Shown here: positions 30,181 through 39,737 of the stretch, in pieces
Layout: every line of letters begins with the position of its first letter
How positions within the stretch are numbered: position 1 is the stretch's first letter
Origin: an uncultured Spirochaetota bacterium
GTDB lineage: Bacteria > Spirochaetota > B62-G9 > DRHN01
DNA: 64,000 bases
Assembly (NCBI GenBank): GCA_964583615.1
Contig: CAZOWM010000003.1
Span: 30,934 to 94,933 of the forward strand
Direction of reading: 5' to 3'
Position numbers and translations under genes: made by a program
The notes under the pieces: model-generated
The model's input: only the letters and a program-made list of their open reading frames with translations
The model's database searches: none
Told to the model about the DNA's origin: nothing

Positions 30181-31617
30181 TTATTCGACGTTGCAGATGT
30201 AGCTTTGCTCCATTTCAGTGTAGGTGATTGAGCACTCCTTTCCAAGAGTGCGTTCCGCCTCCTCCACCGCCTCTTCTACGGTATGAAAGGGTTCGAACCC
30301 AACAAGACGGGCCGCTTCGAAATCTTTTGCCCCTGCAAGAAAGACTCTGGAAAGATACCTGAATCCGTATGCACCCTGCCCGTAGAGAATAAACGGGTGC
30401 GCGCCGTGAAACCCAAACCCATACCTGTATTTGTGTACGTATTCGGGCCTGTGGGCAAACTCCTCTGCATAGAGCTCCCACAGCTCAAAAGGGTCTTTCA
30501 GATGGGGCAGCAGTCTCTCGAACATTTCGACGTAGGATGGATACTTCACACGGTCGAATGTTCGGGTGCATGGGTGTACGAGGATGATGATTCCCTTCTC
30601 TCTCACCAATGGCCTGTTCTGAAACAGTCCGAAACTGTAGGACATACCGAGGTTTCTCACCAGTATGGGGTTGGTTTGTGACATCTTGGAGTATGGGTCC
30701 CTGCTGTTTCCCATCCCATACACCACCATATCAGACTGCCCGTTAACGGTTTCCACGTGCTGTTTCTGCAGTATTTCCAGTGTCTTTTTATGAGCCTCAG
30801 GAGGGTGCCCCGCAACAACTTGAACAACTGCCTGAGGAATCTCGTTGTTCATCGCCGCCTCTATCTGAAAATAGCGTCGTCCCCTTCGGGCAAGCTCCTT
30901 CTCTATCACCGCTCCCATCTCGTTTAAAAGCTTCGGGAAGGCGGAACGCTCAGGATCCATTGTTGATTTTCCCCCGGCCTTCGGGTAGGGTCGATGGTGA
31001 TGGCGTATACTGCGGTAGCTCGAGAGCCCCACTACGGCAGACTTCCAGCCTCCGTTGAAGTGAGACCAGGGATTGCTCACGTAAATAAACTGGTCGGAAT
31101 CGACAACGAGGCGGTTTACTTCCACCTCCATGTTTCGCTTCGTTTCGCCCAGAAAGCGGAGATTGCCTGCGTCTTCCGCGTCATGATTGAAGAGTGAGCT
31201 CGGGCCCCATCGATACCCGATATCTTCACCGATGATTGTGCTGAGCTCTCTTGTCGTCCACTTCCTGTGGAGACCCACAGCGCACACGAGACGGATATTT
31301 CCCCGATCTACTCCGAGGCCATCGAGCTCCTGGAGCAGTACCTTGACGGCCACTCCACGAAAATCAGGCTGTCTCTGCGCAGGGCAGAATCCTATGGGGT
31401 CGTCAAACCCGATGGTCACCACAGACTTCGGCCCCACAAGCTTTGAGAGCGGCTCATGTTCGATGGGATTGTTGAGTGCATCCCGAACTGCCTTTTCGAT
31501 GTCATGCAGAGCCGGGATCGGGGGTGTCGTCTGCCTTATTATTCTCGTTCTCTGGGGAAGTTTTGCTTCGAGGAAACTCGTGCCGTAAGGAATAAAAAAC
31601 CTGTTTTCGTCTTTCAT
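30181..31617 (-). CDS. LarA-like (DUF2088, lactate racemase N-terminal domain) protein
   Basis: N-terminal pattern FIPYG...LP, P.P.L.D..A...AL..PI, TIGFDD, AVGLHR, NGGWKSAV matches the DUF2088/LarA superfamily. Start MKDENRFF preferred. Confidence 0.55.
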   Translation of the reverse strand: MKDENRFFIPYGTSFLEAKLPQRTRIIRQTTPPIPALHDIEKAVRDALNNPIEHEPLSKLVGPKSVVTIGFDDPIGFCPAQRQPDFRGVAVKVLLQELDGLGVDRGNIRLVCAVGLHRKWTTRELSTIIGEDIGYRWGPSSLFNHDAEDAGNLRFLGETKRNMEVEVNRLVVDSDQFIYVSNPWSHFNGGWKSAVVGLSSYRSIRHHHRPYPKAGGKSTMDPERSAFPKLLNEMGAVIEKELARRGRRYFQIEAAMNNEIPQAVVQVVAGHPPEAHKKTLEILQKQHVETVNGQSDMVVYGMGNSRDPYSKMSQTNPILVRNLGMSYSFGLFQNRPLVREKGIIILVHPCTRTFDRVKYPSYVEMFERLLPHLKDPFELWELYAEEFAHRPEYVHKYRYGFGFHGAHPFILYGQGAYGFRYLSRVFLAGAKDFEAARLVGFEPFHTVEEAVEEAERTLGKECSITYTEMEQSYICNVE

Positions 31618-31681
31618 CGTTTCATCCTCAACACAGCAGAAGCCGGGCACCAAGGCTAGGTGGAAAACTGAGAGATGTCTT

Positions 31682-37365: not shown

Positions 37366-38082
37366 CTACTTCTCTGCCCATCCGTTGCCCGCGCCGCTCT
37401 TGCAGTCCAAATGCTCAAAGTATGGTTTGATGTCAACGACCGGTGTACGATCGAAAGCATCTATACAAGAGGTAACGATTATGTTTGCCTCTATCTTTTT
37501 GATTTTCACGATGCTGAGTCCGAGGGGGCTGGGCCTGTTCGGTGACCTGCTGGCAAACACACCAACGGTGATTCCTCCTCCTCCGGGCGGTGTGGCGCGC
37601 AGTGATGCGCTGTGCAAGCTGCGGTTGAGGTAGAAAATCACGAAGGCGTAGGTGAAGCGATCGAGTTGATCAAGGCCCTCTTCATAGCGCGGATCGATGA
37701 TGATGCGGAAATCGCCGTCAGCATCCTCCTGAGTCTGCCTCGGTGCAGAGTGTGTGTACGGCGTTCGTATGATTCCAATCCGGTGCAGCTGGTAATGTGT
37801 ATGATTGTGAAGCGCTTGATGCGCCTCCTCATTTTCCGCCTCCACTGCATGTACATGAGATCCGGCATACGTATCCACGCTTTTCAGGGCTTTCGCAATA
37901 TGATCACCTACCTTTTCGGAAAGGTCCACCACGTGTTCCAGATGATGAACCACCTCTTTCAGTCCCATTTCCTTTGCCTTTTTCAGCCCCTTCACGCTCT
38001 CCTTTATGTGCTCCTCGTTGTGATTCATCCAGTAGTCCATCAAGAGTTTCAGCTTTTGTTTTCCGTCGTACTGTTCAACCAT
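37366..38082 (-). CDS. TsaA/TrmO(YaeB)-like domain protein with ~100-aa His-rich N-terminal extension
   Basis: The C-terminal ~140 aa match the UPF0066/TrmO domain (IGIIRTPY..., GVFASRSPNRPSPLGLS, TPVVDIKPY). The N-terminal ~95 aa contain 13 His (HNEEH, HHLEH, HVHAVE, HNHTH). Confidence 0.7.
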   Translation of the reverse strand: MVEQYDGKQKLKLLMDYWMNHNEEHIKESVKGLKKAKEMGLKEVVHHLEHVVDLSEKVGDHIAKALKSVDTYAGSHVHAVEAENEEAHQALHNHTHYQLHRIGIIRTPYTHSAPRQTQEDADGDFRIIIDPRYEEGLDQLDRFTYAFVIFYLNRSLHSASLRATPPGGGGITVGVFASRSPNRPSPLGLSIVKIKKIEANIIVTSCIDAFDRTPVVDIKPYFEHLDCKSGAGNGWAEK

Positions 38083-38086
38083 CCTG

Positions 38087-38281
38087 CTATTCCCTTTCGC
38101 CGAGGATGACCTGGTTCTTTATGAGATCAACCTCCTTGATCACATACCCTTTCAGCACTTTCTTCTCACCAAACAGGGTATTGATTTCAACCGCATCGTT
38201 GCGGCACACAATTTTTGATGCTTCGTCAACGATTACAGAATTCTCGTCGACACTTTTCACAAAGACTTTTGATAAGCACAT
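38087..38281 (-). CDS. CooT-like small nickel-binding protein
   Basis: 64 aa from ATG 38281 (GGAG RBS): MCLSKVFVKSVDENSVIVDEASKIVCRNDAVEINTLFGEKKVLKGYVIKEVDLIKNQVILGERE. The MC-x-x-KV N-terminus with Cys2, TLF-D/E-E and VDL match the CooT family from memory. The longer ORF to 38407 would overlap pspC. Confidence 0.5.
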   Translation of the reverse strand: MCLSKVFVKSVDENSVIVDEASKIVCRNDAVEINTLFGEKKVLKGYVIKEVDLIKNQVILGERE

Positions 38282-38363
38282 ATACTCTGCTCCGGTTATT
38301 GAGGATAGAGTAAATGTATCAATAAAAATCAAGAAAAAAAAGAAATTCCTGTATCCGTGTGTG

Positions 38364-38558
38364 TCAGGGAGTATTCCGCTCCGGCAGGATAATCCATGCA
38401 ACCGCATAGGTGATGAGGAGCGGGACTATTCCTGTTGCCAGCCCAATGAAAACAAACAGCAGGCGTATGAGTTTCGGATCGATGGAGTACAGCTCTCCAA
38501 GCCCTCCGCATATTCCCGCGAGCACCCTGTGATTCCTCGAGCGAAACATTTTTTTCAT
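38364..38558 (-). CDS. PspC-domain small membrane protein
   Basis: 64 aa, R.R.D.K...GVCGGL..Y...D...RL.FV pattern (RSRNHRVLAGICGGLGELYSIDPKLIRLLFV) plus one TM helix. Confidence 0.75.
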   Translation of the reverse strand: MKKMFRSRNHRVLAGICGGLGELYSIDPKLIRLLFVFIGLATGIVPLLITYAVAWIILPERNTP

Positions 38559-39271
38559 ACCACACTCCTTTCATTATTATATTGTCGGGAATGAAAATGA
38601 CGAGCTTTTTATGCCTGTATTCGATATTTGTTCTGGCACTGTGCGACCAGGTGTTTCCCTCGATTCTCACCAGTATCGGAAAAACAACCTTTCAGCAGGG
38701 GCTGCTTCTCTCTTCTCTTTCTCTGCTCCTGCCGTTTTCGTCAGCCTTCGCAGGCCTTGCCGCGGACAGAATGGGGAAAAAAGCCATTCTCACAATCGGA
38801 GCGCTGTTTCTTGCGATTCCCTTTGCGATTTCCGCTCTGGTCGGCAATATATGGATACAAATCGGTGCAGTGGTCCTGTTCGGCGTGGGCATGGGGTCGG
38901 TGGAAGGCCAGGCCTCTGCACTGCTCACCGACATTCACCCGGGAAAAGAACGCTCGATTCTGAACCTCTCCCAGGTCTTCTTCTGCTTCGGTGCCGCAGG
39001 AGGTCCGTTTCTTATTTCTCTCGCCTTTCGTTTCATTCCCGATCTCGGTCTTCCCACCCTGCTTCTTGCATCTGCCGCTGTTGCCTCTTCTGTGGTTCTT
39101 GGGTTCCTTGTCCTCAAAGACAATGGCCACCCTCACGGAGCGGTTCCGCCTTCCGGTTTCAAACGAGTACTCCTCGACAAAACCGGCAGGCTTCTGCTCG
39201 TTTCGATGTTCCTCTACGTCACCGTCGAAAGAGGCATTGCCGGATGGATTGTAAAATACATGGAGGAACAA

Positions 39272-39288
39272 TTTTTTTTTTCAAAAAA
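39272..39288 (+). repeat. homopolymer pair T10-C-A6 inside the MFS cytoplasmic loop
   Basis: ...caa tttttttttt c aaaaaa cagc...; encodes FFFSKN. A slippage-prone tract 30 nt upstream of the G8 frameshift site. Confidence 0.6.
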
Positions 39289-39318
39289 CAGCAGCGCCCT
39301 TCAGTCTCACCGTGTATT

Positions 39319-39326
39319 GGGGGGGG
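39319..39326 (+). repeat. poly-G (G8) tract at the MFS frameshift site
   Basis: Both overlapping ORFs translate this tract (frame 1 L-G-G-D; frame 2 W-G-G-M), which fixes the run length at 8. Confidence 0.6.
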
Positions 39327-39737
39327 ATGGCAGTGAGCCGGATCATCGTGTGGCTGTTCTTTTCTCGCATGCATGACACTCATCTCCTCGGTATAGCACT
39401 CTTTTTTACCCTCATTTTCCAGGTATTGATCTTTACCACCACTGATCCTGCAATCGTACTGTTCTGTCTGTTCTTCTTCGGTTTCGGAATGGGAACGGTG
39501 TGGCCGACCATAGTTGCGATGGTCGGGGCACGTTTCAAAAAATCAAGCGGTTCTGCGGTGGGCCTCGTCGCTGCATCCGGTGCAGCGGCTGTTCCGGTAA
39601 TTCATCAGGTCATAGGAATTCTCTCACAGTAGCGGTTTTTCGGGCTAAGGACCTCGCTCTTTGGACTTACAGTTATAACCGTACTCAATTTGTTCATCGT
39701 GTACAGGATCGGGCGCTGCCGGAAATGCGGTGCTGAT

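Follow-up and report, generated by a model that had tools for sequence, protein, structure and literature searches.

In a 64,000-nt stretch of a contig (CAZOWM010000003.1, assembly GCA_964583615.1) from an uncultured Spirochaetota bacterium, hereafter the window, two neighboring genes on the minus strand encode a small CooT-family protein and a 238-aa protein that joins a DUF8180 hairpin and a His-rich linker to a short TrmO/YaeB barrel (Table 1). We think it probable that the two form a cooT-cooJ-type metallochaperone cassette whose second gene is fused to an orphan enzyme domain that binds S-adenosylmethionine (AdoMet). Whether or not a barrel is attached, the order CooT then DUF8180 is strongly conserved, and Ni/Co/Zn transporters are often its neighbors. 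A first-pass annotation, made from the letters of the window without database searches, had read the pair as a possible nickel-handling module. This reading gains support from the family assignments, the conservation, the metal-linked fusions and the CbiM/Q/O operons described below; Ni(II) itself would be the metal by analogy with characterized proteins.

The CooT-family gene and the architecture of the fusion protein

The 64-aa open reading frame (ORF) that had been likened to CooT matches the Pfam CooT profile (PF10133) at E=5e-12 and 46.4 bits (cut-off 27) over profile positions 1-59 of 60, and it matched the solved CooT sequences 6fan, 5n76 and 6y8v at E=4-7e-4. In the CooT partners of the fusions, M1 and C2 are present in 12 of the 13 aligned rows, the L005 row being a partial extract. 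Published work identifies Cys2 as the Ni(II) ligand in characterized CooT proteins, for which nanomolar Ni(II) binding by a dimer is a hallmark, and also reports CooT from proteomes without carbon monoxide dehydrogenase (CODH). Judged by its sequence, the first gene encodes a CooT-family protein with the Cys2 that characterized CooTs use for Ni(II). No CODH or CooC gene was detected among the 27 window ORFs scanned (the first-pass annotation had likewise seen no CODH) nor in the related 12-kb loci, and CooT of Rhodospirillum rubrum as a query gave zero matches against plasmids.

The gap between the two genes is as short as had been described, 4 nt on the same strand, and in relatives the junction consists of overlaps or of gaps of 0-4 nt; such spacing suggests translational coupling. 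CooT lies directly 5' of the fusion gene at all seven loci examined (the window and six others), and because the pair recurs in all six of the other fusion loci, the arrangement is far beyond chance. At one of them (L007) the gene caller had made CooT too short, and moving its start upstream restores MCLSTVY. A 62-aa ORF between CooT and the fusion at that locus was considered as a third component and rejected: it looks spurious, the CooT start there being mis-called. The full fusion looks rare and mainly Spirochaetota-associated, since among the best 80 loci kept from a collection of 185,579 species representatives a single one has it. Metagenome-assembled genomes with the fusion include GCA_964433545.1, GCA_975851135.1 and DAOVJS01.

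About 19 full-length relatives of the fusion protein, 36-92% identical to it, each carry precomputed assignments to PF26551 and PF01980. PF26551 is DUF8180, a Pfam domain of unknown function, and it is precomputed on the relative P0001, which is 92% identical to the window protein. The N-terminus of the window protein was assigned through these relatives and through a DUF8180 family hidden Markov model (HMM) built in this analysis, against which it scores 80.9 bits. The N-terminal extension is retained in 20/20 full-length homologues. The first-pass annotation had asked whether the small ORF would find a CooT profile, and whether extension and pair are kept in relatives; the profile matched, and the homologues keep both the extension and the adjacency to CooT.

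The first 100 residues of the fusion protein hold the 13 His counted before (at 21, 25, 46, 47, 50, 61, 76, 78, 88, 92, 94, 96 and 100). In an alignment of 20 full-length fusions, H21 and H25 are invariant and lie inside the pattern KLxxLxxYWxNHNxEHIxE, with an acidic residue at +11 of the motif in all 20 proteins; the equivalents of both His are also invariant in 60 diverse DUF8180 members. Three His arrangements had been pointed out, HxxEH, HHLEH and HNHTH, and only the first, present as HNEEH, is conserved in the alignment, while HHLEH and HNHTH vary. AlphaFold2 predicts residues 2-38 and 42-68 to be a helical hairpin (predicted local distance difference test, pLDDT, 95.6). The model of the whole protein has a disordered segment at residues 73-97 (pLDDT <50) and the barrel at residues 100-233. 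The linker of the window protein has 7 His within 29 residues (aa 73-101), and His-rich linkers of 5-12 His, not conserved in sequence, were found in 13 of the 20 homologues. By this model the extension has two parts, a CooJ-like folded hairpin and a His-rich linker of variable sequence, and is more than a loose His tail. Foldseek against the PDB matched the hairpin to Rop-like and ferritin-like hairpins alone, none of them at a significant score.

DUF8180 and the settings of CooT-DUF8180 cassettes

CooJ is a helical hairpin of about 68 residues that dimerizes into a four-helix bundle, and we take the site residues of the R. rubrum protein to be His18, His22, His26 and Glu29. In the published description, CooJ has a helical domain that bears the Ni(II) site HWxxHxxxH, and a His-rich, disordered stretch at the N- or the C-terminus, and its gene comes after cooT; according to the CooJ authors, the protein is not identifiable by NCBI annotation, eggNOG or sequence alone. 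DUF8180 resembles CooJ in motif, in size, in its predicted hairpin fold, in the His-rich region at either end and in its position after cooT. An exhaustive profile search collected 742 representative clusters of DUF8180, mostly standalone proteins of 65-100 aa with the family consensus KLxxLLxHWxxHNxEHxxExxKW. Among diverse members with a recognizable motif, the first position is His in 30/59 and the position at +11 is Glu or Asp in 51/59; in the Chloroflexi-type group the first His is present in 14/14. Long poly-His tracts were found N-terminally in P0124, P0143, P0160, P0164 and P0201 and C-terminally in P0171, P0189, P0302 and P0384. CooT and DUF8180 are fused into a single chain in P0152, P0219, P0248 and P0374.

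A link to a genuine CODH context came from Acetoanaerobium noterae, in which the gene order is acsB, gcvH, RACo, CooT, DUF3842 and then a gene for a 115-aa protein whose N-terminal region is His-rich and whose sequence includes LLAHWVDHNNSHQDGFKEW. This protein matches the DUF8180 HMM at 35.7 bits (E=4e-7 for a million sequences), and it is therefore a DUF8180 member at the CooJ position in a real CODH/acetyl-CoA synthase (ACS) cluster. Homology of DUF8180 to clostridial-type CooJ is well supported, that to R. rubrum CooJ is unproven, and the data suggest that DUF8180 is a CooJ-type family widespread outside CODH operons. DUF3842 recurs beside CooT, in a metagenomic locus (L023 3938..4387) as well as in the Acetoanaerobium cluster (L191 7198..7614), and the cassette may include it as an additional member.

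Standalone DUF8180 genes in metagenomes were scanned with alignment A4; 80 loci were taken, 72 of which had at least 260 nt upstream. A same-strand CooT gene precedes DUF8180 in 62 of these 72 loci (~86%), mostly at a distance of no more than 60 nt. In L105 the pair is embedded in the order FUR, CbiM (+PDGLE), CbiQ, CooT, DUF8180, CbiO, with a family-5 binding protein upstream, and in L023 CooT and DUF8180 are followed by two genes and then by CbiM, CbiQ and CbiO. L018 has DUF1847, CooT, DUF8180, a radical SAM gene and CDF, with ZIP near, and L187 is an isolated CooT-DUF8180 bicistron amid housekeeping genes. When neighbors were clustered and counted by number of loci, the recurrent ones were ferredoxin-domain (Fer4) ORFs (34), class I methyltransferases (23, directly downstream in ~12), FeS_assembly_P (18), metallo-beta-lactamase fold proteins (16), radical SAM proteins (16, directly downstream in ~7), Nitro_FeMo-Co (8), ZIP (8), CDF (7) and CbiO (6). 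No CODH cluster was found among the neighbors of the sampled loci, so that by gene content the CooT-DUF8180 cassette is a metal-handling unit of general use in anaerobes and is not specific to CODH.

Two further features of these settings were observed. A UbiE-like class I SAM methyltransferase gene overlaps a short TrmO_N gene by 4 nt (L011 5453..6498), lies 5' of a LarC1::TrmO_N gene (L015 4409..5065) and stands directly 3' of CooT-DUF8180 (L105 3156..3755; ~12 of L107-L186); the fused barrel may have its functional counterpart in this enzyme. On Chloroflexi-like contigs without CODH (L007, L018, L020, L107-L186), CooT-DUF8180 is surrounded by CbiA/ParA P-loop ATPases with ferredoxin inserts and by DUF1847, Nitro_FeMo-Co and FeS_assembly_P. 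The CbiA/ParA Pfam family also holds CooC, and this cluster looks like a maturation system for some metalloenzyme.

The TrmO/YaeB barrel and the surrounding genes

The C-terminal TsaA/TrmO domain named in the first-pass annotation was confirmed: TrmO_N (PF01980) matches residues 113-226 at E=5.8e-30, and NCBIfam TIGR00104 scores 121 bits (cut-off 93). The closest solved relative is AF_0241 (2nv4; E=2e-21), and Foldseek with the barrel model retrieved AF0241 with SAM (2nv4) at E=5e-9 and TrmO structures at up to 1e-6. In the work of Kimura et al., AF0241 was shown to bind AdoMet via Gln22, Arg82, Asp111 and Lys122, the Lys coming from the other subunit, and a C-terminal DPRxxY domain to be required for N6-methyl-N6-threonylcarbamoyladenosine (m6t6A) formation; short archaeal-type homologues are without it, their function being unassigned. 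The predicted AdoMet contacts of the window protein, Q116, R179, D208 and K219, align with Q22, R82, D111 and K122 of AF0241, and R179, D208 and K219 are invariant in the 20-protein alignment. Canonical matches carry the DPRxxY domain (TrmO_C, PF18389); the fusion, in contrast, ends at aa 238, five residues after the barrel, with this domain absent, and the barrel is for this reason, as far as sequence can tell, that of an AdoMet-binding short YaeB, not of a canonical TrmO. The pipeline label "tRNA m6t6A methyltransferase TrmO" is very probably wrong for this protein.

By domain assignment, the short YaeB barrel clade has been joined independently to several metal-binding modules, namely DUF8180, a poly-His tail, LarC1 and FmdE. 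In the cultured Firmicute Desulfosporosinus paludis SB140 (L035 5766..6588, NZ_CP144211), CooT is followed after 25 nt by a 202-aa TrmO_N protein without DUF8180 but with 22 His in a 56-aa C-terminal tail. The barrel is nested in the LarC1 nickel-insertion domain in P0037-P0044, where P0041 (L015 6001..7254) has the order Ni_insertion, TrmO_N, Ni_insertion in 417 aa, apparently without LarC2. FmdE::TrmO_N fusions occur in P0084 and L043, and published work describes the FHGHxC site of FmdE as binding Zn/Ni, mainly Zn, and fmdE genes as neighbors of metal transporters.

Some observations on the barrel and its relatives stand apart from these fusions. A tail, HLxLHIKGIPH(D/S)Y, is common to many short TrmO_N proteins (P0018, P0008, P0012-P0016, L031), to the LarC1-nested P0041 and to fusions with a Lys-rich linker, five of six of which end in HLxxHIKGIPH; the window protein is without this tail. 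The neighbors of the LarC1::TrmO_N gene in L015 are two methyltransferases, ArsP_2, a radical SAM protein and NadA. A short tsaA gene, its product 40% identical to the window barrel, accompanies qnrA6 and ISCR1 on IncC plasmids of Klebsiella and E. coli (L190 6977..7456) and is presumably a Shewanella-derived passenger gene. An ENA entry of 97 aa (P0121), whose first 29 residues are identical to the N-terminus of the fusion family and are followed by a 2x[4Fe-4S] ferredoxin, is probably an assembly chimera.

The loci syntenic with the window are Spirochaetota-like (L001-L004, with L001/L003; L005; L006; L010; L025) and share the order ATP-binding cassette (ABC) exporter pair, M20 peptidase, (MFS, PspC), CooT, fusion, GH3, GAF-HD-GYP and transketolase. 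An unrelated setting was found in L007-L009, with a sigma-54 activator, NrfD and cytochromes, and that of L007 is Desulfobacterota-like. The ABC exporter pairs of the window and of Desulfosporosinus were considered as orthologues and rejected, being only ~30% identical. The PspC gene reported just upstream of CooT is present in the window, and among relatives it lies 5' of CooT only in the close ones (L005, L010) and is missing in L001, L006 and L007; it is outside the conserved core of the cassette. A sigma-70-like match upstream of pspC may mark the start of a pspC-cooT-fusion transcript, the evidence being weak because the number of such sites in the region does not exceed shuffle expectation. 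An MFS transporter gene divergent from pspC (38582..39632, plus strand) is split into overlapping ORFs (38582..39376 and 39312..39632), and the syntenic L005 has a single 385-aa MFS gene; the split is likely a frameshift, a pseudogene or a sequencing error. Flagellar genes are also present in the window, as would be expected of a member of the Spirochaetota.

Two more distant genes had been offered as nickel clues. The LarA homologue was confirmed, but synteny in the relatives L001, L005 and L010 does not extend to it, and a scan of nine surrounding ORFs (21.7-36.1 kb) found no larB, larC or larE; a functional link between it and the cassette was rejected on these grounds. The family-5 ABC importer is likewise real, but its binding protein scores 386 bits as DppA versus 223 bits as NikA, and it was rejected as a Ni importer. 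Both clues therefore give the case no support.

Table 1 Features of the window named in the text, with positions counted from its first letter
Feature	Position	Strand	Details
LarA homologue	30184..31653	-	Lar_N E=2.4e-35; best NCBIfam LarAH14/15/16 392 bits, below cut-off 740
Fusion gene	37366..38082	-	238 aa: DUF8180 + His-rich linker + TrmO_N barrel
Short archaeal-type TrmO/YaeB class VIII AdoMet-binding beta-barrel	37384..37785	-	aa 100-233
Disordered His-rich linker	37786..37869	-	aa 72-99
DUF8180/CooJ-like two-helix hairpin	37870..38079	-	aa 2-71
Putative metal site	37999..38034	-	Y17-W18-x-x-H21-x-x-x-H25-x-x-E28; counterpart of CooJ HWxxHxxxH
Spacer CAGG	38083..38086	-	4 nt between cooT TAG stop (38089..38087) and fusion ATG at 38082
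cooT-like gene	38087..38281	-	64 aa + stop, begins MCLSKVFV; Met1-Cys2 codons 38281..38276
Ribosome-binding site GGAG	38293..38290	-	8 nt 5' of cooT ATG
PspC-domain membrane protein gene	38364..38558	-	64 aa; Pfam PspC E=7.2e-20; upstream neighbor of cooT
Sigma-70-like promoter match TCGTCA-16-TATAAT	38576..38603	-	upstream of pspC; 10/12 positions match

Competing readings and known systems

A cooT-cooJ-type cassette would work as follows. The fusion protein may be a homodimer, since TrmO barrels form the AdoMet pocket across a dimer and Rop-/CooJ-like hairpins pair into four-helix bundles. CooT would capture Ni(II), or less likely Co or Zn, at its Cys2 site, the His-rich linker would take up several metal ions at low affinity, and the hairpin site would bind metal at high affinity. 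The metal might then be held beside the AdoMet-binding barrel, or passed to it or to a client recognized by it, and the barrel would act on some substrate other than in tRNA m6t6A formation. Given that neither the window nor the related loci examined have a CODH gene near the pair, Ni would have to go to a different client. This reading further supposes that metal passes between Cys2, the His-rich linker and the HxxxH(E) site, and that metal and barrel depend on each other functionally.

Several observations weigh against this reading. The window protein has Tyr, not His, at the first motif position (YWxxHxxxH(xxE)), and no link from DUF8180 to R. rubrum CooJ (6HK5) was obtained at E≤10 with profiles A2 and A3, P0340 or the A. 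noterae domain; because no sequence search reached R. rubrum CooJ, we call the domain only CooJ-like. In the window, the pair has no tie to a Ni enzyme or to a transporter specific for Ni. In six of the 20 fusion homologues the linker is rich in Lys and nearly devoid of His, CooT was near short TrmO_N genes in only 2 of 79 genome loci and adjacent in just one, and the ZIP, CDF and FUR neighbors of standalone cassettes are equally compatible with Zn or Co as with Ni.

The last point is shared by a reading in which the pair buffers or stores divalent metals in general (Zn, Co or a mixture) rather than Ni, the barrel being a passenger or a dimerization scaffold. ZIP, CDF and FUR-family genes do adjoin standalone pairs, storage proteins typically have variable His tracts of low complexity, and FmdE, a related fusion partner, binds mainly Zn. 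We nevertheless find such a role improbable: published work characterizes the Cys2 site of CooT and the HWxxHxxxH site of CooJ only as Ni(II) sites, Ni/Co importer operons of the CbiM/Q/O type enclose the pair, and a passenger would not retain 4/4 AdoMet contacts in homologues 36-92% identical. The full retention of these contacts suits an alternative in which the barrel is a metal-regulated methyltransferase acting on RNA, protein or a small molecule, with DUF8180, linker and CooT sensing Ni/Zn and so controlling its activity or stability instead of supplying a client with metal. The SAM enzymes often encoded directly 3' of standalone DUF8180 (class I methyltransferase at ~12 loci, radical SAM at ~7) and the UbiE-like methyltransferase adjoining short TrmO_N and LarC1::TrmO_N would fit it too. 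Most CooT-DUF8180 pairs, however, are without a methyltransferase and are found with transporters instead, and CooT and CooJ are experimentally chaperones, not sensors, according to published work, so that a sensor seems unlikely to us.

The possibility that the pair is an RNA-modification module, in which a tRNA or RNA methyltransferase relies on the CooT-like protein to replace the RNA binding of the TrmO C-domain and the His are incidental, appears very remote. CooT was formerly annotated as a "predicted RNA-binding protein", a label that JGI gives to a CooT::DUF8180 fusion, and the score above the TIGR00104 cut-off explains why pipelines name the protein TrmO. Against this stand the missing DPRxxY domain needed for m6t6A, short archaeal-type homologues not being linked to that modification, the conservation of Cys2 among CooT partners and the pairing of CooT chiefly with DUF8180, at loci entirely without a methyltransferase. 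A bolder version of the metallochaperone cassette holds that the short archaeal-type barrel itself is a Ni-requiring or Ni-delivering AdoMet enzyme, loaded by the CooT/CooJ-like pair in an undescribed Ni-dependent pathway of methyl transfer or cofactor maturation. We put it forward tentatively and as doubtful; if true, it would explain why the barrel was joined independently to DUF8180, poly-His tails, LarC1 and FmdE, and it would give a function to the long-orphan archaeal YaeB paralogues.

CooT, CooJ and TrmO_N are individually known, and the N-terminal domain is catalogued only as a DUF. The first-pass annotation named no described precedent of the architecture, and a full-text literature search found no paper joining CooT with TrmO, TsaA, YaeB or DUF8180, and no functional work on short TrmO-like proteins; TrmO and CooT proteins are unmentioned in the NPN/AKR paper and the LarC cryo-electron microscopy paper, and CooJ is not covered in a nickel chaperone review. 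What the present data suggest as new is DUF8180 as a CooJ-type family outside CODH operons and the repeated tie of short YaeB barrels to metal-binding modules. If this is correct, CooJ becomes findable through the 742 representative clusters of DUF8180, and CooT/CooJ, until now a CODH-specific curiosity, turns into a metal-handling cassette that is widespread in anaerobes and often connected to Ni/Co importers. The short YaeB/TrmO homologues, which bind AdoMet, are unable to form m6t6A and since 2014 have lacked an assigned function, would gain a Ni or transition-metal setting, an error of automated TrmO annotation would be exposed, and D. paludis SB140 offers a culturable, tractable organism for the link between CooT and the barrel.

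Among known systems, the cooFSCTJ operon of R. rubrum (5N76, 6HK5) has the same small Met-Cys2 CooT with a second gene immediately after it, and its CooJ shares the helical hairpin of ~66-70 residues, the (H)WxxHxxxH site and the disordered His-rich region. The window cassette differs in having no CODH or CooC nearby, a Tyr for the first motif His, no detectable sequence similarity to R. rubrum CooJ and an attached TrmO_N barrel. The clostridial clade E-type CooT/CooJ of A. noterae includes a DUF8180 member with an N-terminal His-rich region in the same cassette as CooT; unlike the window fusion, that protein is standalone, lies in a Wood-Ljungdahl cluster and is separated from CooT by DUF3842. 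AF_0241 (2NV4) is a single beta-barrel cocrystallized with AdoMet, with four equal contacts and likewise no DPRxxY domain, but it lacks a metal-binding module at the N-terminus, and no CooT partner of it is known. The tRNA m6t6A37 methyltransferase TrmO of E. coli, an enzyme type defined by methylation of t6A37 in tRNA-Thr(GGU), also has an N-terminal class VIII AdoMet-binding barrel, only 35-39% identical to that of the window protein, and, unlike the latter, needs its C-terminal DPRxxY domain. The LarC1::TrmO_N proteins (P0041 group) likewise combine a Ni-binding module, here LarC1 as the Ni-insertion domain of NPN cofactor synthesis, with a short TrmO_N of the same clade (43-46% identical); they differ in this partner domain, in having no CooT/DUF8180 and in their Chloroflexota-like contigs. 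The tails of HypB, SlyD and UreE resemble the window linker as variable, low-complexity His-rich segments on a structured domain; they sit on GTPase, peptidyl-prolyl isomerase or UreE folds and serve hydrogenase or urease, whereas the conserved element in the window fusion is the hairpin site, not the tail.

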